Assembly: GCA_025336685.1 (NCBI GenBank)
Contig: GCA_025336685.1_4717.1
Strand: one strand, 5' to 3'
Length of the DNA: 64,000 bases
Source: Escherichia coli
GTDB lineage: Bacteria > Pseudomonadota > Gammaproteobacteria > Enterobacterales > Enterobacteriaceae
Shown: positions 5,529 through 46,611 of the stretch, piece by piece
Position numbering within the stretch: the stretch's first letter is position 1
How the letters are laid out: each line of letters starts with the position of its first letter
The notes under the pieces: generated by a model
What the model saw: only the letters and a program-made list of their open reading frames with translations
What the model was told of the DNA's origin: nothing
The model's database searches: none
Position numbers and translations under genes: made by a program

Positions 5529-6194
5529 TTAAATTGATGTTAGATACTGCTTACCTCCGACAAACGATGTCAACCAGTTCCCACTGACGAGCTGTGATAC
5601 CCAGCCAGGCACTGCCCTACCGTTCTGGCTCATCACATTACCCGCCCATCCCGGAAAACCAGGTCGGAAAATATATACTTGAATATGTGTTAAAGCGTTA
5701 TCATTACCTCCACCAACAGCAACATTACGACGTCCGGATGATGGGAAATATTCTTTTAAGAACAGGGGATCGTTTGCCAATAAAGAAGCGGGCCAAGGAT
5801 TAGCGGATGCGTCAACATCGAATTCGGTCCATCGCCATTTGCGTCCGGTATCGAACCAGGTTGACGTACCACCGCCACGCACCGCAAGATTGCGTGCATC
5901 ACGGGCACTGTATATTGATTCGATGTTTCGCCACCCACCTTTTGCGGCGTTTGCCGCATAGCAAATCGCATTACCACCATTCTTCTTTTCGTAAACGGTT
6001 CGTTTGATATGAACACGGTCGATAAACGCTTCACCGTATTTGTTGACGAGTGTTTGCGCGATATCACGAAGATCGTGCATATGAAAGGCGATGTCTTCGT
6101 TGTGGAACCACGTTGTCGGGTTCCAAACGGTGCCGTTTGGTTCGGCACACATCGATCGGATATTGTTGCGTTGATTAATCGCGATAAAGCCCAT
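5529..6194 (-). CDS. hypothetical tail-module protein (about 221 aa), paralog of 4781..5422
   Basis: Same C-terminal module with different N-terminal region; start chosen at internal ATG 6192-6194 with GAGG SD (ORF track extends to 6257 through the terminator). Confidence 0.5.
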   Translation of the reverse strand: MGFIAINQRNNIRSMCAEPNGTVWNPTTWFHNEDIAFHMHDLRDIAQTLVNKYGEAFIDRVHIKRTVYEKKNGGNAICYAANAAKGGWRNIESIYSARDARNLAVRGGGTSTWFDTGRKWRWTEFDVDASANPWPASLLANDPLFLKEYFPSSGRRNVAVGGGNDNALTHIQVYIFRPGFPGWAGNVMSQNGRAVPGWVSQLVSGNWLTSFVGGKQYLTSI

Positions 6195-7273: not shown

Positions 7274-10200
7274 TTACATAAACTCCTCGATGATGCAAAT
7301 CCCGTCAGCGCCACGCCCGCCACGCATAACGGTTCCAGTGTAACCGTTATCGTAAGCGCCGCCGCCCGAACCTCGTGCGAGGCCGTTTGACCCACCGCCA
7401 ACAGCTGCGCGACCACCGCCACCCCAATATGACGCACCCCCACCACCACATACAGGAAATGCGCCAGCCTGACCGTCATCACCATCACCACCTGAAATGC
7501 GTATATCCCCGGTACTAGGTACACCACCACCCCCACCGCCAGTGTTTGTGACAGTTGTTTTTCCTGCGCCTTGCCCACCGGGAGCAGTCAGCAGGGATGC
7601 AAATTTACTATCCCCGCCCCTGTTTCCAACTGTTGCCCCGGAACCACCAGTGCCACCAGAACCAATTACAACAGAATAACTAGTAGCCGCTACCGTTATA
7701 ACCGAAATTACTGTTGCCCCGGCCCCACCGCCAGCACCAAAAAACGTTTCGCTGTTGGAAAAAGCCTGGCAACCACCACCGCCGCCTCCACCACCGGTTA
7801 ATATTACTCTAATCCGTTTTGTTCCTTGTGTTGGGGTGTACGTCCCTGACGATGTGAAAACACGCATGTTCAGTAAACGTCCGACATATCCACTAGAATC
7901 GGCTAAACCAAGATCTTTAGCTGCTAACGTGATATTAGCTGTGCCATCGAAAGGTTTACCGTTAATCGTGCGTGCCGTCTGCAGCTTCGTGGCCGTTGCT
8001 GCGTTTCCTGACGTATTCTGGTTTCCCGCGGCGTTAACACCTGGTAGATTGATGTTCGCACTACCGTCGAAAGACACCCCACCAATGGTGCGGGCTGTCT
8101 TCAGTTTTGTCGCCGTGGCGGCATTACCGGTCGTGTCTTGGTTACCGGTGGTGTTTACCCCAGGTAGGTTGATATTGGCTGTTCCGTTAAATGAAACACC
8201 ACCAATCGTCCTTGCTGTTTGCAACTTCGTTGCGGATGCCGCATTCCCCGTGGTGTTTTGGTTACCTGTTGCATTCACGCCTGGGATGCTATCCTTAGAT
8301 GTGTAGATCTGTGCCCATTCCGACCAGTTCGAATCGGCCGCATCACGACGTGAACGTAGGTAAGCTGGAGCGTGTGCGCCTGAGGTACCTGACCACCCAA
8401 TGAGGATTTCACCTTCACCGACCGATGAAGCCCCTTTAAGATGAATGATGTTACCATAAGCGGTGGGATATCCGTTATTGTACGCTTCATACATCTGGAT
8501 GCCCGCATTGCTGCCCTGAGCCGTGTTAGCTAAGGCCGTAACACGACCTTTGGAAGCGAGAGCGTTAATACTGAAGCTAATATCCTTAGTACCGTCAAAG
8601 GCGACCCCATTAATCTTCCGTGCTGTTTGGAGTTTCGTAGCAGTAGCCGCATTACCAGAGGTACTCTGATTACCTGCTTTGTTCACGCCCGGTAAATCAA
8701 TGTTGGCTGTTCCATCAAAGGACACACCCCCTATGGTTCTCGCTGTCTGGAGTTTTGTTGCTGAACCAGCGTTTCCAGAAGTGCTTTGATTACCTGCCGC
8801 GTTGACACCCGGTAGGTCAATGCTAGCAGAACCATCAAAAGAAACTCCACCGATCGTGATCGGTGTTTTCAATTTCGTGGCTGTCGCAGCATTACCCGTC
8901 GTATTCTGATTGCCAGCAGCATTAACACCAGGTAATGCGATATCGGTCGTACCATCGAACGCAACACCACCGACTTTACGGGCGGTCTGTAGCTTGGTCG
9001 CTGTAGCCGCGTTGCCGCTGGTATTTTGCGTGCCTGCTTTATTTACGCCAGGCAAATCAATGTTCGCAGTACCATCAAAAGAAACACCCCCGATGGTTCT
9101 CGCGGTCTCAAGTTTGGTTGCGCTTCCTGCGTTTCCGCTGGTGCTTTGATTTCCCGCTGCATCAACACCTGGTAGATTGATGCTGGCCGAACCATCGAAA
9201 CTCACACCACCGATAGTAACAGCGGTTTTCAACTTCGTCGCCGTTGCTGCGTTACCGGTTGTATTTTGATTGCCTGTCGCATTAACGCCCGGTAATGCAA
9301 TATCCGCTGTTCCGTCAAAGGCAACGCCACCGATTCTACGTGCAGTTTGTAGCTTGGTTGCACTAGCAGCGTTACCGCTGGTATTCTGGGTGCCAGCTTT
9401 GTTAACACCGGGGAGATCGATATTAGCAGAACCATCGAAGCTGACGCCACCTATCGTTCTTGCAGTATCGAGTTTAGCTGCTGTGGCTGCATTATTACCC
9501 ACTTTCAGCCAATCATCCCATGGACCATCCTGGCCGTTCCATGATGCCGTTAAACTACGTACGTAAATATTGCCGGTACGTACAGTGTAACGTTGCGTTC
9601 CACCGAATTGTCCGGCAGGGAGCACTTCAAGGTAACCTGCAGCATTTGCTTCAGGGAAATTGTGGGCGACGTCCGCGTTCGTTGATACTGGTTTAGACCA
9701 AATACCCACAGACACTTCAACCGGACCGTAAGTATTCAGATTTGCGTCGGTGGGGAGCTGTCCTCGAAAACGTTGGAATTGTGTCGCCGATAACCCCAAC
9801 GTTGTTTGCATGCTTTCAATGCTGGATTGCTGAAGTAACGTCCGTGCTGTCGATGTAATCACGGTAAGCGCAACTTTATTAACACCGGTGAAATACGGGA
9901 GTTTGTCTGCTGATGTCGCTAAACCTGAAAAGGCGGTCAGTAATGCGTTAAGGGGCTGCTTCCCAGCTAACGCATTTGTTACCGTCGTTGCGAAATTAGG
10001 ATCGCTTCCTATAGCTCGAGCCAGCTTATTAAGCGTATTTAGCGTCGCTGGTGACGAGTCGATCAGCGCCGTGATCGCACGCATCACAAATTCCGTGTTG
10101 GCTATCTGTCGACTGCTATTGTTAACTGCTGCGGTGGGCGCTGCTGGCGTACCAGTGAATACAGGGCTATTAAGATCCGCCTTGAGGGCGATGAGACGTT

Positions 10201-11156: not shown

Positions 11157-11684
11157 TTATCCTGGATAAATAGTGATGATATCACCAATGACCGTTGTGG
11201 CACCGGCGTAAAGATGAGCCGGAGATACATCGTGTTGGTTTGTCACGGTAAGATCCAATCGACCACGCCAAACCATGGAGGTATTCGCGATGGGGATAGA
11301 AATCTTTTTGGATATATCGTCACGAAAATCAATAACAGTGGCAAGGGTAACTGTATCAAAGTCAACGTCGGGGTCAAAGACGAACCCGTATTGATCTGAA
11401 ATCGCCCGAATAATCGCGTGTATAGTTGTTGTCTTAACAGACTCTAAAACGATTTTTATTGGTATTCCTAGAAATGCCTTCGCAATATCGCGTCGAGCGT
11501 AAACGATAAAACTTTCACCGTTCCACCTTGTTCCTTCATTTGCTGTGACGATCACTTTTGCCCTGTTAGCACCAGAACTTCCATCCAAGACTAATGTAAG
11601 ATCGGAGCTGTTGAATACGCTACTGTTACGTCTGTTTATCAACGACGTCAGTTCGTCTTTCCATGGCGGGTAAAGTGAACACAT
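11157..11684 (-). CDS. free-standing anchor-domain protein (about 175 aa) upstream of the long fibre
   Basis: Paralog of the N-terminal domain of the 870/590/503-aa proteins (YARRDIAKAFLGIPIKI); start MCSLYPPWKDEL with GGAGGAGGG SD. Confidence 0.5.
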   Translation of the reverse strand: MCSLYPPWKDELTSLINRRNSSVFNSSDLTLVLDGSSGANRAKVIVTANEGTRWNGESFIVYARRDIAKAFLGIPIKIVLESVKTTTIHAIIRAISDQYGFVFDPDVDFDTVTLATVIDFRDDISKKISIPIANTSMVWRGRLDLTVTNQHDVSPAHLYAGATTVIGDIITIYPG

Positions 11685-11797
11685 ATGTGCACCCTCCTCC
11701 AACATAACCAGATTAAATATATATTTCTTAAACGTGGGACACGATTCGAGATAAACGTTAACGGTCTTAACGACCGCATAAAATTCCGCGCATATTA

Positions 11798-11841: not shown

Positions 11842-13596
11842 TTATGCTGCTACATATCCAGGCCAACGTTCTCTTGGCCAGTTTGTTGCGCCCTGTCCAA
11901 CGTTGTCCTTACCAGAAATTACGTTACTTACATCCCATCCACTCAGATCCTGATTGAACGCGGTGTTTTCGCGCATCATGAGATCGATCTTACGTAGTGA
12001 ACGGGTATTCCAGCCGGAAATGTCTTGGTTGAATGCTGTATTGTAGGCAAACATGTTAGACACGCTTTGTAACTTCGATGTGTTCCAACCACTGATGTCG
12101 CTATTGAACGACATGCTCGAGAACATGCTGCTCGCATCAACAAGGCTGTCGGTTTTCCAATTAACCAGTTTATCACCATCAAGCGCAGCGCTGCTGCTGA
12201 ACATAAAACTCATGTCGTTAACTTTGGACACATCCCATTTATCCAACCCGTTACCCACGAACGCGGGACAGGACGAGAACATATAACTCATATTAGTAAC
12301 CCGACTCACATTCCATTTACTGAAGTCGAGGTTAAGTTTCTGACACCCTAAGAAGGTTTTAGACATGTTGGTGATACGACTAACATCCCACTCTTGGATG
12401 TTGGGGTCGTTAAGTGTCGTTAAATAGTTGAACAATGTCGCTAACGACGTCCATTTCTGTGGAATCTGGTTTGGTACCGTACGAAGCGATGCGAGGTTGT
12501 TGGTTGACGGAGAGCAGAACATGCCGTTATCCCAATTTACGATCTCCGTAATTTTGGACCCTTTGATCGTCTGAGTGACGTTACCATCTTTCACCATACC
12601 TGTAGCGACGATGGTATATTCACCGGTGTCCGCATAATCGTGGGAGTAGGAGTTGTTGCTTGAGGTCTCCGTTACTTTATTCCCATCACCCCAATCGATA
12701 TTGACCTTATCCCATCCACCTAGATAGAACTGTACTTTGCCTCCGGTGGCTTTTAGGATGTATTTACCCCCATTGTCTGTATAATAACAGACGACCATCG
12801 AACCGTACAGATTACCTATCTGCCAATCATCCTTTTGCGTTATTGCGATTTGCGCCGCACCACGCTGTACGAAGAGTACCGTACGATTCTCGGCAGTCTG
12901 TAATGTGGTTATTGCCTGAGCCTTATCGTCCTCGCTAATTTCGCCAGACGCCACCAAAGCGCTTAACATCCTTTCGAAGTATTCGATCGGTAACTCGGTT
13001 CCAACAGACTTATCAACAGACGATACGGCAAGATCACCCAATGCTGCGGTGGTAGCCAACGCCAATGAACCCTTGGTCATATCTGTTTCTTGGATGTAAT
13101 GCAGTCCTGTAAGCTGGTACGCTTGAATAATAGTAATCAGGTTCAGCGTATCGTTAACGACCTGTACCTGTAAATTCCCGGACCATACATAACTGCTTTC
13201 AGCAATCGGTAGTTCGACCGACTGAATACCCGATGTTTCAAAGGTGATCTTCTTATTAAGATCGGTTTCCAGGAAATCAACCGCGAGGTCGAAATTCATG
13301 CCGTACTTTTCAGCGATGGAATCTACGATATTCTTGAAAGCAACATCGGTGCTTACGATAAAACGTAACGGAATTCCTGTAAACGCTTTAGCGATATCTC
13401 GACGAACATACGTAAGCGATTGTTCGAAGAAATAGGGACTGTTATCTCCAGGCTTGATGGTTACCTGACACGCTTCAGGATATTCAGCTGGGATGAACGA
13501 TTCGAATTTAACATCGGATTCCTTCAACGAAAGCTTGTTATTTCGGTTCACTAACGCCAGAAGATCGGCTTTCCATCCGGGGTAAACTGTAGACAT
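11842..13596 (-). CDS. receptor-binding protein: anchor domain fused to DUF285/BspA-like repeat domain
   Basis: N-terminal anchor paralog; C-terminal repeats WNVSRVTNMSYMFSSC / WDVSKVNDMSFMFSS / WNTSKLQSVSNMF match the DUF285 repeat signature; start MSTVYPGW with GGAG SD. Confidence 0.6.
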   Translation of the reverse strand: MSTVYPGWKADLLALVNRNNKLSLKESDVKFESFIPAEYPEACQVTIKPGDNSPYFFEQSLTYVRRDIAKAFTGIPLRFIVSTDVAFKNIVDSIAEKYGMNFDLAVDFLETDLNKKITFETSGIQSVELPIAESSYVWSGNLQVQVVNDTLNLITIIQAYQLTGLHYIQETDMTKGSLALATTAALGDLAVSSVDKSVGTELPIEYFERMLSALVASGEISEDDKAQAITTLQTAENRTVLFVQRGAAQIAITQKDDWQIGNLYGSMVVCYYTDNGGKYILKATGGKVQFYLGGWDKVNIDWGDGNKVTETSSNNSYSHDYADTGEYTIVATGMVKDGNVTQTIKGSKITEIVNWDNGMFCSPSTNNLASLRTVPNQIPQKWTSLATLFNYLTTLNDPNIQEWDVSRITNMSKTFLGCQKLNLDFSKWNVSRVTNMSYMFSSCPAFVGNGLDKWDVSKVNDMSFMFSSSAALDGDKLVNWKTDSLVDASSMFSSMSFNSDISGWNTSKLQSVSNMFAYNTAFNQDISGWNTRSLRKIDLMMRENTAFNQDLSGWDVSNVISGKDNVGQGATNWPRERWPGYVAA

Positions 13597-13614
13597 AAGC
13601 ACTCCAAAGTTCAT

Positions 13615-37855: not shown

Positions 37856-38515
37856 TTATTTGTCAGGGTCTGGAAAATAGTAATATCGCCAATACAACAT
37901 AGCAATCGCATTTCTTATTCGACGCGCCTCGAAACGACGGCCGAGAAAGGACTTGTAACAAGAATCGCGAACCATAAACAACTCATGGCTCGATATCATC
38001 AGAACCACGATCTCTCTTATATACGAATTGCAGCACTCGATAAACGGATCTGTATCGTACGTATATTTCCTGGCACTACCTATCCCCAACTCTCTATTTA
38101 ACTCACGACAGTTTATCAAAGACTTCGCACAACTGATAAGCCGGACGAAGTCCCGTAAATTGCGGCGAAAGCAAAAATGTCGCCAGGTTCTTAGTGCGTT
38201 ATGTAGCGGACCTAGGATATCTATTCCGATTTTTACAATGTCCGCATCTTTCTTTAATACTTTTTTGTAATACTTCCTATCGTTCGATAATCCATTAAAC
38301 TCATAATTACAATTATATAGCTTATTCGTGCATTCAACCATCTCGTCGATGTATGATAAGAAGTAGTCCACTAATCTAACTGCTTTGTTATCGTCGTACT
38401 GTTCAGTCAGCAGGCGAAGCTGGAGTAGTCGTTTTCGGAAGCGGCGAATACGCCATTGCCACCAAAACCATCGAATATCCCGAATAGGTTTTACTGTCTC
38501 TGTATTAGAGTTCAT
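37856..38515 (-). CDS. hypothetical protein (219 aa), AT-rich block
   Basis: ORF in a lower-GC segment; Trp/Arg-rich N-terminus. Confidence 0.4.
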   Translation of the reverse strand: MNSNTETVKPIRDIRWFWWQWRIRRFRKRLLQLRLLTEQYDDNKAVRLVDYFLSYIDEMVECTNKLYNCNYEFNGLSNDRKYYKKVLKKDADIVKIGIDILGPLHNALRTWRHFCFRRNLRDFVRLISCAKSLINCRELNRELGIGSARKYTYDTDPFIECCNSYIREIVVLMISSHELFMVRDSCYKSFLGRRFEARRIRNAIAMLYWRYYYFPDPDK

Positions 38516-39149
38516 CGTTATTGATACCCTCTATTAGTTGTACCGCAACCTCTCTTTCGGTGTTGTAAAAGAACTTGCGATGGAACCGAACAAGAAGCCT
38601 TTCAAATTTACGTTGCACGATCTTTTTGCGTTCGATATGGCCCAGGGAGAGCAAAGCACCCATGCAACGTACCGCCTGTTCAAGAACTTGTTTCGCGGTA
38701 TCATGATCATCCGGCAACGGTAAATCTTCTTCGTCGTCTTTAGCGATAAGACGTCTAATGATGTTATCGATGCGTATCTCATCGCCGTTAATAAAAGCAC
38801 CTTTCTCCCATTCATCAAACCGTTGATGGATTTGACGTTGTAGGTTGGCCCTATCTTCCGTTAACTCTTTCAACTGGTTTTCTAAGTTGAATACGGTACG
38901 GCGATCTGTTTCAGTGAATCTTTCCGACTCTTTATACCACCAATCATTACGTGCCAGTAAATCGTTGACACGCGATACCATCCGACGACATTCACCAACA
39001 AGTCCATCACCATTCGGTAACTCTGTGCCGAAATAACATTTGTATTTATAACGCGTAACACGGATTAAACGTTTCGCTAGAAAACCTTGTTTTTCCAGTT
39101 TCTTCTTCAGCTGTATGTATTTCTCTTCTTTTGTTTCCATTAATTCCAT
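38505..39149 (-). CDS. hypothetical protein (214 aa), AT-rich block
   Basis: ORF, no motif. Confidence 0.4.
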   Translation of the reverse strand: MELMETKEEKYIQLKKKLEKQGFLAKRLIRVTRYKYKCYFGTELPNGDGLVGECRRMVSRVNDLLARNDWWYKESERFTETDRRTVFNLENQLKELTEDRANLQRQIHQRFDEWEKGAFINGDEIRIDNIIRRLIAKDDEEDLPLPDDHDTAKQVLEQAVRCMGALLSLGHIERKKIVQRKFERLLVRFHRKFFYNTEREVAVQLIEGINNDEL

Positions 39150-39538
39150 GATGTTGTACCTCGTTCAGCAATCAGGAGGGTCGTGGTTGTGCTTTTCACT
39201 AATCTATTAAAGTCTTGATATATCCGCCTGAGGGATGATTTCAAATTGCAATAACGGTTGAAATAAACCTTCAGGTCATCTTTTGTCACCGTCTCCGTAT
39301 TTATTTTCGTAGAAACACCGAGATCGATAAACTCTTTTCTTAATTGGGATAATTCGTCAAGAAGTCGATGATGGCTTAGATAAATAATAGATTTATCGGA
39401 TAACAACTCGCCGGTTATCCGGCTCTGGCGTTCATCGAGATATTGGAGCCGCCATTCAATTCGCTTACGTAATTTATCAAGTAAATCAACAAAAGCGGTA
39501 TAGCTGTTAACGGCTAGGTTAACTTGACTCGCTATCAT
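39140..39538 (-). CDS. hypothetical protein (132 aa), AT-rich block
   Basis: ORF, no motif. Confidence 0.4.
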   Translation of the reverse strand: MIASQVNLAVNSYTAFVDLLDKLRKRIEWRLQYLDERQSRITGELLSDKSIIYLSHHRLLDELSQLRKEFIDLGVSTKINTETVTKDDLKVYFNRYCNLKSSLRRIYQDFNRLVKSTTTTLLIAERGTTSWN

Positions 39539-40810: not shown

Positions 40811-41107
40811 TTATACCGCCACCTTAGCCTTGATAGCAGGGTGTGATTGATAACCGACGAATACAAAGTCTTCGTAGCGGTAATCCGTAATACTTTCCGG
40901 TTTACGTACGATTGTTAGCTTCGGTAATGGATACGGCTCACGACTAAGTTGCTCTTTAACCTGTTCGAAATGGTTGTGATAGATGTGGCAATCCCCACCC
41001 GTCCACACGAACTCACCAACGTCCATATTCAACTGCTGGGCAAGCATATGCGTTAGCAACGAATATGATGCGATGTTGAATGGAACACCTAAAAATACGT
41101 CAGCACT
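40811..41107 (-). CDS. thyA: thymidylate synthase, exon 2 (C-terminal 98 aa)
   Basis: Begins [15 protein letters not shown] and ends PAIKAKVAV, matching the ThyA C-terminus; joins in frame to exon 1 (...LSCQLYQR|SADVFLG). Confidence 0.85.
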
Positions 41108-42214
41108 CATTCTGTTCAGATAAGGTCGTTAATCTTATCCCGTTAAAATAACAGCTGTAGATTATCTCTACAGTTCGGACTATATCACGATCTCCTTCCC
41201 TGGAGACCCCTCCCGTTTCACACCCACTTGGGCGTTACGCTACTCATCACTATTTTTATTCATCCGTTTAGTGCTTTCGCTAGTCTCTGGGCATTCTTCT
41301 ACAAGTCTGTACGATTCAAATTTGGGATTTTTACTACCTAATCGATAAAGTATCGTTGCCGGAACAACACCTAACTGCCGAGCCGCCTCAGTTAAAGAGA
41401 CATACTGAATTCCGTCGATTTCCACTTTACGTGCTGTAGTGGGAATCTTCCCCTTATTCACTTCGGCAAGACGACGTCGCGTCTCTTCTGTATGGTGTCG
41501 CCCATAGAACGAATTCTTTTCCCCGGTTCGGGTTTTTGCAAACTCTGATATCTTTCGACGAGTTTCTTCGCCAACCTTTACACCTAGGCGTCTAGCCCTA
41601 GACGCCGCGATGTTTTCGGGAGTGCATACTTTTCGCCGAATGAGTTCACGTGTTTCCGGTGTATGTGTTCGACCATACATCCCGTTACGTTCGCCCGGAT
41701 TGCCATGAACAGCGCGCCTTTGTTCAGGCGACATCGAAGCGAATCGATCGTTAACGACTTTAGTTATTTTCTCGATTATGTCATCGCGACGTGGGTTTCT
41801 CGATAAATTATCACCGCCTAAAGCACCTTTCCCGATATTGAGAGATGCTTCTTCCGGGATGCTATCGATATACACCTGCTCTAAAGCGTATGCCTCTTCT
41901 CGGGTACTACATTCATCGATATCCACGGTGATAAATCCACCACGGTTATGGATATCTTGTAATTTAGCGTTGTGGTGAGAACCATTACGCAAAGCCGATC
42001 TGTGCGTAGCTAACCGCTGATTAATGTTCCCGGTGCTACCAACATAGACATCGCCGTCTTGAGTACATAACCGATATACTACTGGTTTTTTCATACTGCC
42101 TCCTTTAAAAGAGAGACAGACTTGTAGAAGGTTAGCAACGGATTAGCCCGTAGGCTTTCCCGTTTTAAGGAGGTTATTCGACGTAGCTCACGCTACGAAG
42201 GCGCAGTTGCGTTT
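41108..42214 (-). mobile_element. group I self-splicing intron (1107 nt) interrupting thyA, carrying a homing endonuclease gene
   Basis: Exon 1 ends in U (CAGCGU), intron ends in G (AAUG) before exon 2; P7 strands CCAGAGACUAG (plus 41279-41289) and GAUAUAGUCC (41177-41186); P9 hairpin CUGUAGA-GAUAA-UCUACAG (41155-41173); P8-like hairpin GGUCUCC...GGAGAUC. Confidence 0.8.
41240..42094 (-). CDS. intron-encoded GIY-YIG homing endonuclease, I-TevI-like
   Basis: N-terminal VYRL...DVYVGST GIY-YIG module with conserved Arg/Glu; repeated NGMYGRTHTPETR / NSFYGRHHTEETR NUMOD3-like motifs; C-terminal HTH; AAAGGAGG SD inside the intron. Confidence 0.8.
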   Translation of the reverse strand: MKKPVVYRLCTQDGDVYVGSTGNINQRLATHRSALRNGSHHNAKLQDIHNRGGFITVDIDECSTREEAYALEQVYIDSIPEEASLNIGKGALGGDNLSRNPRRDDIIEKITKVVNDRFASMSPEQRRAVHGNPGERNGMYGRTHTPETRELIRRKVCTPENIAASRARRLGVKVGEETRRKISEFAKTRTGEKNSFYGRHHTEETRRRLAEVNKGKIPTTARKVEIDGIQYVSLTEAARQLGVVPATILYRLGSKNPKFESYRLVEECPETSESTKRMNKNSDE

Positions 42215-42937
42215 ACGCTGGTAAAGCTGACAGGATAAAGCACGTGTTGGTACGTTATGCGCATTCAACCAAAGTTCTGTTTCACTGCGTCGTACATCAT
42301 CCGTAACCCACTGGGTTCTTAATACGTCGTTGCGCTGGACATAATCAACGCGTTCATCGAGTGTGAGTTCGTGGGTATAGAACTGATAGAATGAATGGCA
42401 CGGAGCGAGATGCATATCGTCTAAATCACCTACGTTCCATGCGCTAACGATGATCCGTCGAGAATCAGGATCTTCTTTAAGCTGACGCATCACGTTTGCA
42501 ATCTGATCGTGATGTCTAACATACACGAGGTGTTTTAGCATACCGTCATTAAGAATGCCGAAATATTCATAGCCGCGTTGCATCAACTCACGAGTACGTT
42601 CTGTATCGTGCGGAACAACCACTTTATAGTCGATCCATTCCCGCCATTGTTTGCCGTAAATCGGTCCTAGATTCCCTTCTTCGTCAGCCCATTCATTCCA
42701 GATACGAACACCGTTATCTTGAAGATAAGCAACGTTTGTGTCGCCGTTAAGAAACCAGAGCAGTTCGTGGATAACGCTCTTAAGGTGAATCTTCTTGGTG
42801 GTTACCAGCGGAAATCCTTTCTTCAAGTCAAAACGCATCTGACGTCCGAATACGGAACGGGTCCCGGTCCCCGTGCGGTCGGCTTTATCGCGACCGTTAT
42901 CCATGATGTCTTGCAAAAGGTCCAAATACTGTTTCAT
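42215..42937 (-). CDS. thyA: thymidylate synthase, exon 1 (N-terminal 241 aa)
   Basis: [12 protein letters not shown]...DRTGTGT...[12 protein letters not shown]...[23 protein letters not shown]...LSCQLYQR: ThyA motifs including the catalytic Cys loop; the ORF-track frame runs on into the intron. Confidence 0.85.
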
Positions 42938-45273: not shown

Positions 45274-46599
45274 TCACTTCAGAAGCTTAGACATCGCCAT
45301 GCTTCGCGCTAACGCAACATCATACGCATCCATGATCGCGTCACCGATAGCGGTATGACGGATCAGCGGAATACCCATGTCTGGATACTCTTTGGTGCCT
45401 AAGATGGATACCGGTTTGTCTTGATACGCAGCAATCATCGAACGGATATCCTGAACCTGGTTATAACGACAAACTGGCTTAAAGCCCGCTTTACGGAACC
45501 AATGCTCTAATTGAGGCCAATCTGTTTCACCGCGAGCAAGATAATAGAAGGTATCCTTACCGTAGTATTCAGTCATTTTGTCACGAATACTGTTGACGAA
45601 CGCATTTACTTCGGTGATGGCTTCTTTATAACCCATTGCCTTACAATGTTGAAAACAATAGTCGCGCGCTTCCTTTGGTGCTTTGGTTTGCCACCATTCT
45701 ACTGTTGATTCACTGATACGACCACCGTCAGCGATTTGACCATGAACGTCAGGGAAGATATCTATACGCGGACCGTTAACAATGGATTCTGGATTAGCCA
45801 GATCGAAGAACACGATACCGATTTCCAGCAATACTCCATTCTTTTCCAGACTAAGGTTTTCAACATCTAAACAAAATGCAGGCTTCTCTACCGCTAACGG
45901 CTCGAACGAATGGTTGCTGGTATCCGATTCGGTTTTAAGTTCGACGACAACCGGATCGGTATCCGTAGGTTTCAGTTCTACTACAGCATCATCGAGTCCC
46001 GATAACGAAAAATAGTCTTCGAAGAAATCGGGTATCGTCATGCCATGCAAATTGATATCGCAATCTTCCAACCATTGCTTCAACTGGTGCTCACCGGCAT
46101 GAATCGCTAAACGACATGGTCCGGAACGATCATCTAGCGCTGCATCGATCCAGAAGAAAGCGCGTATAAGTAAGTAAGGATTGTACTCCGCGATGATTTC
46201 TTGGCTAGCCGAGAAATCGTACACCATTAGTTGTGTTATTCCCTTACGAGTGTTATACGGATCAACTTTCAATCGACGCACTATTTCTTCTACGAATTCC
46301 AACGCACGCGTGTACGATGTGGACCCACCTTGTTCATACGAACATATACCCGTCAAAAGTTCCTTATAGGACGCATATGGAACCATAGGCGATAATTTGT
46401 ACGACAGTTCAGTATTGTAATTATCGCATAATTTCTTCGGGGCGATAGCATCCTGTATCGCTGTAATAAACGCCGGTCCATCAATATCAAACAACCATCC
46501 TTGACGCCGGTATGCAGTGTATCGTAATAACGCACCGATAACTGCCTGGGGCGGTGTATATTCTTTTCCGTTAATTTCAAACAGTAGTTTGCTCATCAT
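45274..46599 (-). CDS. putative DnaQ-like (DEDDh) 3'-5' exonuclease domain protein (441 aa)
   Basis: C-terminal half has Exo I-like FCLDVENL (D-x-E) and Exo III-like RHTAIGDAIMDAYD (H-x4-D); N-terminal half unknown. Confidence 0.55.
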   Translation of the reverse strand: MMSKLLFEINGKEYTPPQAVIGALLRYTAYRRQGWLFDIDGPAFITAIQDAIAPKKLCDNYNTELSYKLSPMVPYASYKELLTGICSYEQGGSTSYTRALEFVEEIVRRLKVDPYNTRKGITQLMVYDFSASQEIIAEYNPYLLIRAFFWIDAALDDRSGPCRLAIHAGEHQLKQWLEDCDINLHGMTIPDFFEDYFSLSGLDDAVVELKPTDTDPVVVELKTESDTSNHSFEPLAVEKPAFCLDVENLSLEKNGVLLEIGIVFFDLANPESIVNGPRIDIFPDVHGQIADGGRISESTVEWWQTKAPKEARDYCFQHCKAMGYKEAITEVNAFVNSIRDKMTEYYGKDTFYYLARGETDWPQLEHWFRKAGFKPVCRYNQVQDIRSMIAAYQDKPVSILGTKEYPDMGIPLIRHTAIGDAIMDAYDVALARSMAMSKLLK

Positions 46600-46611
46600 A
46601 ACACCTTTTCA

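Follow-up and report, generated by a model that had tools for sequence, protein, structure and literature searches.

Mobile group I introns with a homing endonuclease gene are a well-known kind of element, and in thymidylate synthase genes their paradigms are I-TevI, from the td intron of bacteriophage T4, and I-BmoI, from Bacillus mojavensis thyA. I-TevI cuts 23/25 nucleotides (nt) upstream of its own insertion site. The two introns occupy different positions in the gene and hold their open reading frames (ORFs) at different positions inside the intron; I-BmoI is without a zinc finger, and in the cleavage motif I-TevI requires both C1 and G5 of CNNNG, whereas I-BmoI, whose published motif is GCCCG, requires G5 only (PMC5009752). 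The I-BmoI substrate oligonucleotide, GANNNNG(-2)N9-CATGGCCTTGGGAAATCCCTTCAAT, puts the insertion between an Arg and a Ser codon (PMC3664794). Here we analyse the interrupted thyA gene in a 64,000-nt stretch of an Escherichia coli assembly (GCA_025336685.1, contig GCA_025336685.1_4717.1), the whole of which we refer to as the window. The element that interrupts the gene belongs to this well-known kind: thyA of a Goslar-like E. coli phage very probably carries a mobile group I intron of the T4 td/Bacillus thyA family, subgroup IA2. The element combines a site and an enzyme architecture of the I-BmoI type with an ORF position of the T4 type.

Synteny of the window with Escherichia phage vB_EcoM_Goslar (MK327938, 92316-153638), at about 90-93% DNA identity across 92% of its length, leads us to take it as DNA of a Goslar-like jumbo phage. 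Goslar itself is classed in the literature as a nucleus-forming chimallivirus.

The interruption in thyA

The ORF that opens thyA (42937..42188, on the minus strand, as are all features of the gene and its insert) is ThyA-like through ...LSCQLYQR, the last exon base being U 42215, and then reads KRNCAFVA before a UGA stop at 42190..42188. ThyA-like sequence resumes in a second ORF (41110..40811) that matches positions 169-266 of the Pfam family Thymidylat_synt. The joined protein of 339 amino acids (aa) matches this family in one stretch, from position 1 to 266 of 266, with 391.5 bits, and the two exons add up to 1020 nt, which is the length of the uninterrupted Goslar thyA (Goslar_00141; 93% identical DNA). 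The insert between them measures exactly 1107 nt (42214..41108) and is missing from the thyA alleles of Goslar and of loci L100 and L101. An intein was ruled out, as the insert is out of frame and brings a stop after 8 codons.

We set the intron boundaries by protein colinearity, by the U.G and terminal-G rules and by comparison with 16 homologous introns; the Goslar DNA alignment could not place the splice sites to the base, since divergence is too high over the 30 nt to either side. The last U of exon 1 forms a U.G wobble with the guide UGCGC in 13 of 13 sequences, and every one of the 16 family members has the terminal G, which lies at 41108 in the window. In 16 of 16 introns, the base before GCGC of the guide covaries with the first intron base (A or U). 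Covariation with guide-adjacent bases is also seen for the two bases that open exon 2 in most of the 16, the exceptions being L103 and SL2, and is that expected of the predicted P10. Two types of intron can be told apart, one (A...ACU-GCGCC) with Ser codon AGY and the other (U...NGA-GCGCC) with UCN. In all 16 the exon 1 frame meets an in-frame stop no later than the ninth intron codon, ahead of the catalytic core. Only one other boundary would give an identical mRNA, a shift by one base (exon 1 ...GUA, intron ...UGA), and it was rejected because it breaks both the U.G and the terminal-G rule. The predicted ligated junction would thus read CAGCGU/AGUGCU, that is, ...UACCAGCGU joined to AGUGCUGAC... 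(here and below, a slash within a sequence marks the insertion point).

The fold of the insert was examined in a covariation test, in which 13 ORF-deleted homologous introns were aligned with MAFFT and a td-type structure, P1-P9.2, was drawn on the window sequence. Of 81 pairs, 56 carry compensatory changes on both sides; the covariation score amounts to 0.626, compared with 0.10-0.15 in controls, and none of 500 shuffles reached the observed values. Helices P2, P3, P7.2, P8, P9, P9.1 and P9.2 are 91-100% paired with compensatory changes at nearly all positions, and P6a forms 12 perfect pairs in the window, 11 of its 12 columns being compensatory in spite of alignment slippage. We also built a covariance model, R1, from the P7.2-P9 core of ten td-family members, with the window, its Goslar-like relatives and the locus L011 excluded. 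R1 gave one significant match in the 64-kb window (128 kb of strand), at 41245..41153 on the minus strand (73.7 bits, E 2.4e-17); a second match at 9580-9644 (7.4 bits, E 3.7) was dismissed as chance. The model also matches the other intron-containing loci, and gave no match in intron-less alleles or in four tested loci with free-standing endonuclease genes.

Inside the insert, the endonuclease ORF is preceded by AAAGGAGGCAGU AUG, in which the Shine-Dalgarno sequence, GGAGG, stands six bases ahead of the start codon. It matches PF01541 (46.7 bits), PF07460 (51.4 bits) and the NCBIfam model TIGR01453, 'group I intron endonuclease' (84.1 bits, cutoff 56); its C-terminus (residues 182-254) matches the solved DNA-binding domain of I-TevI (PDB 1i3j, E 2.4e-9), and Y7, Y17, R27, H31, H40, E72 and N86 are invariant among 30 homologues. 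A zinc finger of the I-TevI type was not found: the CKCG...CGKC segment of I-TevI aligns to Cys-free sequence, and the enzyme has four scattered Cys only, with no CxxC. It is 29% identical to T4-type I-TevI, 38.5% identical to the SPbetaL1 enzyme, which has the same zinc-finger-less GIY-YIG/NUMOD3/helix-turn-helix layout, and 43-44% identical to enzymes of phiKZ-like phages. The P6a loop houses the ORF, the last 68 nt of which also serve as P6a', P6', the P7 5' strand and P7.1. Comparable hairpins to the one predicted to bury its Shine-Dalgarno sequence (Table 1) are found at the same place, with different sequence, in L104 (Joad), L027 and L015. A regulatory role for such a hairpin has been described for I-TevI, and the predicted hairpin of the window may have a similar one.

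These results agree with a preliminary description of the locus, which had been made from the sequence and its ORFs. The split of ThyA that it proposed, with exon 1 ending at 42215 in U and resumption at 41107 after an intron ending in G at 41108, is right to the base by the two Pfam halves and by colinearity with Goslar. Its assignment of the 1107-nt insert to the group I introns, on the same strand, is borne out by covariation in the 13 introns and by a core within 41108-42214 recognized by the td-family model, and the P7 strands (GACUA/UAGUC) and P9 hairpin (CUGUAGA/UCUACAG) to which it had pointed were recovered. The GIY-YIG ORF with its own Shine-Dalgarno sequence, at 42094..41240 and 284 aa long, has the expected domain matches, and its 3' end does overlap the P7 5' strand, the stop codon (41242..41240) lying downstream of P6a', P6', the P7 5' strand and P7.1.

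Several observations weigh against a mobile td-family intron with a homing endonuclease. The P1-P9.2 structure pairs 89.6% of cells across the 13 introns, a figure that falls to 35-41% once the 3' partners are shifted by 1-3 columns, but because the structure was drawn on the window sequence the proportion of paired cells is inflated relative to these shifted controls, compensatory counts being less affected. P5, P6a and P7.1 pair in just 65-74% of alignment cells, counts that understate the support partly because MAFFT set length-variable hairpins out of register. PF20987 scores 25.8 bits in the endonuclease, slightly under its cutoff of 27. Finally, the scan with the Rfam group I model that the preliminary description had suggested found nothing: RF00028 (Intron_gpI) was unmatched in the whole window at gathering thresholds and in 40900-42400 even at E<=10, and the Rfam scans of these two regions returned chance snoRNA and frameshift matches alone. 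We judge this a false negative and reject it as evidence of absence, because two authentic T4-type td introns run as controls (L002 and L003) score 36.2 bits with the same model, below its gathering score of 50, which makes the silence of RF00028 uninformative.

Table 1. Positions of the thyA exons, intron, ribozyme elements and endonuclease gene in the window
Feature	Position	Strand	Remarks
thyA exon 1	42215..42937	-	723 nt, 241 codons; ends ...CAG CGU (QR); Pfam Thymidylat_synt positions 1-159; colinear with Goslar thyA codons 1-241
Intron-linked exon 1 flank	42215..42247	-	predicted cleavage motif CAGCG at -6..-2; 12/30 nt differ from Goslar
Group I intron, td-like, subgroup IA2	41108..42214	-	1107 nt; starts AAACGC, ends ...AGAAUG; covariation in 13 homologues, custom covariance-model match
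P1	42201..42218	-	exon GCGU + intron A (42218..42214) pairs with guide UGCGC (42205..42201); U.G wobble at 5' splice site; helix 100% paired
P2 hairpin	42182..42197	-	CGUAGC-GUGA-GCUACG; 6/6 pairs compensatory; loop holds UGA 42190..42188
P3 5' strand	42173..42168	-	CCUCCU, then J3/4; P3: 5/6 pairs compensatory, 98.7% of cells paired
P4	42163..42159 / 42142..42138	-	conserved
P5 hairpin	42156..42145	-	UACG
P6	5' strand 42136..42135, 3' strand 41292..41291	-	GC and GC; conserved; 3' strand inside ORF
P6a 5' strand	42119..42130	-	CUUCUACAAGUC; pairs across ORF with 41307..41296
Predicted hairpin at endonuclease start	42096..42119	-	CUGUCUCU...GGAGGCAG; buries endonuclease Shine-Dalgarno sequence; minimum free energy -10.2 kcal/mol, z -2.9
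Homing endonuclease gene	41240..42094	-	284 aa; GIY-YIG domain, NUMOD3 repeats, C-terminal I-TevI-type helix-turn-helix; PF01541, PF07460, PF20987
P6a 3' strand	41307..41296	-	GACUUGUAGAAG; inside ORF
P7 5' strand	41281..41285	-	GACUA, within CCAGAGACUAG; inside ORF; invariant 13/13; pairs with 41182..41178
P7.1	41273..41248	-	CACUA/UAGUG; 65% of cells paired; support chiefly from comparison with L011
Peripheral IA elements	41220..41273	-	P7.1, conserved GAGUAG and P7.2; IA signature between P7 and P3'
P7.2	41235..41220	-	ACGCCC-AAGU-GGGUGU; 6/6 pairs compensatory
P3 3' strand	41214..41209	-	GGGAGG
P8	41208..41189	-	GGUCUCC/GGAGAUC; 6/7 pairs compensatory; then J8/7; within custom-model match
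P7 3' strand	41182..41178	-	UAGUC, within GAUAUAGUCC
P9 hairpin	41173..41155	-	CUGUAGA/UCUACAG; 99-100% paired, compensatory changes
P9.1	41152..41142	-	99-100% paired, compensatory changes
P9.2	41140..41118	-	99-100% paired, compensatory changes
thyA exon 2	40811..41107	-	297 nt, 98 codons + stop; starts AGU GCU GAC (SAD); Pfam positions 169-266; colinear with Goslar codons 242-339
Intron-linked exon 2 flank	41078..41107	-	predicted endonuclease binding region; near-invariant in five intron-plus alleles

Relation to known introns and endonucleases

As judged from its position in the gene, the insertion site is the thyA site of the I-BmoI or SPbeta type and not the T4 td site. The intron follows QR, 7 codons (21 nt) upstream of the T4-type site FLG/LPF, which is used by the T4-type locus L003 and by L064 and L068. 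The Bacillus introns of the I-BmoI type (B. mojavensis thyA, SPbetaL1) sit at the same place as in the window, between the Arg and Ser codons of ...QRS or ..RARS, and have the same G at -2, the middle base of the Arg codon. In SPbetaL1 (L103) the junction reads ...GCC CGU/AGU..., exon 2 matches the I-BmoI substrate and GCCCG lies at -6..-2; its core is of the td family, like that of the window (R1 33 bits). We take beta22, of the SPbeta group, to be another case at this exact thyA site. The window differs from the Bacillus introns in its host, an enterobacterial jumbo phage, and in its upstream motif, CAGCG in place of GCCCG. The I-BmoI ORF lies at another position in its intron than that of I-TevI (PMC5009752), whereas the window ORF is in P6a, like that of I-TevI.

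The preliminary description had seen in the locus a mirror of the T4 td arrangement, which is correct in part. The gene, the intron subgroup and the core motifs (UAAACGGGGAAC, AAUGCCUAACGACUA, GAGUAG, CAAGUG, GAUAUAGUC) are the same, the ORF lies in the P6a loop in both, the helix-turn-helix DNA-binding domains are homologous (1i3j), and a motif homologous to the CNNNG of I-TevI is present at -6..-2 in the window. The resemblance extends to the last 35 nt of the intron (41108-41142, minus strand; P9.2 to the terminal G), which are 34/35 identical to T4-type td introns. It fails at the insertion site, 21 nt upstream of that of T4, at P1 and the guide (UGCGC in the window, GCCUA-type in T4), over the remainder of the intron, where identity is about 40%, and in the enzyme, which lacks the zinc finger and resembles the SPbeta-type endonuclease more than it does I-TevI. 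Because P9.2 covaries freely in other members, the identity of the 3' end, a stretch of 35 nt only, suggests that intron segments have been exchanged between E. coli phages and that the intron is a mosaic.

Other jumbo phages provide parallels in host. Erwinia phages Joad and RisingSun (gp188-190) and the Pseudomonas phiKZ-like phages SL2, PA02 and OMKO1 have the QR/S site of the window and share its intron family (R1 78-88 bits) and endonuclease family (35-44% identity), and they too are nucleus-forming jumbo phages. Their sequences are nevertheless distantly related to that of the window, their records show separate coding sequences and no intron, and the SL2 ORF is found downstream of P9, in the P9.1 region, where the window has its ORF in P6a. 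The intron endonuclease gp210 of PhiPA3 (Birkholz et al. 2024, PMC11620839) differs from that of the window in lying in a virion RNA polymerase (vRNAP) subunit gene, and a review figure legend describes nicking of the vRNAP gene. Our literature searches for a thyA intron in Goslar-like or other jumbo phages found no description.

Through the endonuclease homologues, we found a homologous intron at the ...(Y/F/L/M)(Q/M)R/S... boundary in 16 diverse thyA genes, including those of the 259-kb phage contig L011, Erwinia phage Joad, Pseudomonas phage SL2 and Bacillus SPbetaL1. Among 94 loci with endonuclease relatives, 73 carry thyA beside or around the endonuclease gene. Most relatives on viral contigs (L020-L096, for example L031, L020, L033 and L037) are free-standing, immediate neighbours of an uninterrupted thyA, either on its strand or converging with it, and the endonuclease family appears to be tied to thyA with or without an intron. 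In L013 (1441-2613) and SL2 (L102, 1216-2380) the whole core precedes the ORF, which is in the P9.1 region and not in P6a. Together with the free-standing relatives, these differing ORF loops indicate that the endonuclease gene moves independently of the ribozyme. A separate observation concerns L068, a 3.5-kb viral locus with two td-family core matches (475-566 and 2071-2155; 60.6 and 62.6 bits), one of them upstream of the thyA segment that bears the T4-site intron; the second core may represent a second intron in or near the same gene.

Competing explanations and a proposed pathway

The same gene order could arise from the insertion of a free-standing GIY-YIG gene, with no splicing: the two halves (249 and 99 aa), the second of them starting at an AUG formed by the last three intron bases, would each be translated on their own, the products combining into an active enzyme. 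In ORF calls and public annotations the halves do stand as separate genes, as for Joad gp188 and gp190, and many relatives of the endonuclease are truly free-standing beside an uninterrupted thyA. However, the ORF is flanked by non-coding sequence that forms a conserved ribozyme rich in compensatory changes, which plain gene insertion would not maintain; the AUG at 41110 is without an upstream Shine-Dalgarno sequence (it reads UAUCUGAACAGAAUG); the break parts the adjacent active-site residues R and S; and translation of exon 1 would append KRNCAFVA to the first half. We consider such a split gene very improbable. A former group I intron that has ceased to splice, leaving thyA a pseudogene and the phage dependent on its host for deoxythymidine monophosphate, is improbable too. 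It would agree with the blindness of the general Rfam model to the core. Against it, none of the core helices is broken, and the U.G pair and the terminal G are in place, as are the invariant P7 and J8/7; five intron-plus alleles that have otherwise diverged keep both exons open and conserved, and the endonuclease ORF is intact with its catalytic residues.

Descent as a direct orthologue of T4 td and I-TevI, acquired from a T-even phage at the T4 site, is scarcely credible, although it draws on the near-identical last 35 nt, on the P6a position of the ORF and on the fact that phages of both kinds infect E. coli. The site 21 nt upstream with its UGCGC guide, the low identity of the intron beyond those 35 nt, and an endonuclease that is 29% identical to I-TevI and missing the zinc finger refute it for the insertion site and the endonuclease; the 3'-terminal 35 nt may have arisen by recombination.

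For the group I intron with a homing endonuclease that we prefer, we infer self-splicing, the cleavage position and homing from the comparisons above. The transcript would fold into P1-P9.2, and an external guanosine would attack after the U of ...CAGCGU (42215), held in the U.G wobble with the guide UGCGC; the terminal G (41108) would then dock and exon 1 be ligated to AGUGCU..., restoring the active-site motif and the full-length 339-aa thymidylate synthase. The UGA in the P2 loop would halt ribosomes arriving from exon 1 before they reach the catalytic core. If the endonuclease behaves like I-BmoI and I-TevI, it would bind intron-less thyA DNA chiefly on the exon 2 side, and its cut would fall within the Gln-Arg codons (CAGCG, with G at -2), a few bases upstream of the insertion. 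An intron-plus copy serving as template for repair would then pass the intron, along with exon flanks, into the cut genome. CAGCG is predicted to be the cleavage motif on the basis of its likeness to CNNNG of I-TevI and NNNNG of I-BmoI (PMC5009752).

Alleles, surrounding genome and significance

We compared eight Goslar-like thyA alleles, five of them intron-plus (the window, L004, L007, L008 and L009) and three intron-less (Goslar, L100 and L101). Relative to the window, the other intron-plus alleles show 53-138 differences over 1020 exon positions, and their endonucleases diverge by up to 22% at the protein level, yet these alleles have at most one difference in the first 30 nt of exon 2 and few in the last 30 nt of exon 1. 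Against these, the intron-less alleles show 15-19 differences in the first 30 nt of exon 2, where they are also unlike one another, and Goslar and L101 show 11-12 in the last 30 positions of exon 1. In protein terms, the normally conserved SCQLYQR/SADVFLGV becomes SCMLLARSQDTVLGT in Goslar, SCMLTARSQDALLGT in L101 or SCQLYQRSCDTVLGK, L100 reading ...SCDTVLGK. Goslar (GCAAG) and L101 (GCGAG) have lost the C of CNNNG and kept the G at -2. This pattern is as expected if the intron moves with a short co-converted exon tract, and it would also fit a history in which the surviving intron-less alleles have diverged in the predicted recognition region of the endonuclease.

Polymorphism at this place extends to a related jumbo-phage ThyA clade (P0123-P0240, from phage contigs of about 220 kb in Salmonella, Shigella and E. 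coli assemblies), in which mean column identity is 90% and the active-site segment nevertheless comes in several discrete versions at the intron site (FYMMRSNDYLLGAPFNV, FYMMRSNDVALGKPFNI, FFLMRSNDVFLGLPFNI, QLYQRSCDYFLGGSFNV), a variability unusual for such a motif. It is conceivable, if rather doubtful, that the intron and its endonuclease take part in an ongoing conflict among co-infecting Goslar-like phages. Intron-less alleles would then have rewritten a near-invariant active-site segment and so evaded cleavage or binding, and the endonuclease would act as a weapon whose effect is set by its import into the phage nucleus of a rival, as shown for PhiPA3 gp210. The mosaic make-up of the element (site and enzyme of the I-BmoI type, ORF position of the T4 type, T4-identical 3' end) would in turn reflect module exchange between unrelated E. 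coli phages.

Elsewhere, the window departs from Goslar at several places. In the tail module, a 590-aa ORF with DUF7941 and DUF285 (BspA-like repeat) domains at 11842-13614 (minus strand) is a clean 1.7-kb insertion relative to Goslar; its N-terminus is similar to the adjoining 182-aa ORF at 11157-11705, and it may be an extra host-range or receptor-binding paralogue. Over 7900-9750, blastn aligns the window with the 'tail fiber repeat protein' gene of Goslar (99500-101400) in many matches of 65-82% identity that overlap and are offset from one another, which indicates an internally repetitive and more diverged tail-fibre region. Segments 5669-6190, 38165-38519, 39139-39531 and 45894-46607 are without a blastn match in the syntenic Goslar region and lie inside ORFs of 242, 219, 132 and 441 aa; none of these looked like a homing endonuclease by eye, no dedicated search having been made. 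Conversely, Goslar 121395-122105 (Goslar_00120) has no counterpart at about 30600 in the window.

It follows that the annotation of thyA should here be a spliced join that assigns the endonuclease ORF to the intron, where public records (Joad, SL2, SPbetaL1 and Goslar-like contigs in Salmonella and E. coli assemblies) show two thymidylate synthase fragments or hypothetical proteins; Rfam-based pipelines will overlook introns of this class. The td/thyA intron family reaches the Goslar-like jumbo phages, and the I-TevI and I-BmoI paradigms, from T4 and Bacillus, mark the two extremes of a single widespread family, which recombines and occupies two sites separated by 21 nt. With intron-plus and divergent intron-less alleles in near-identical phage backgrounds, these phages offer a system in which to study homing, escape of the target and import of the endonuclease into the phage nucleus.

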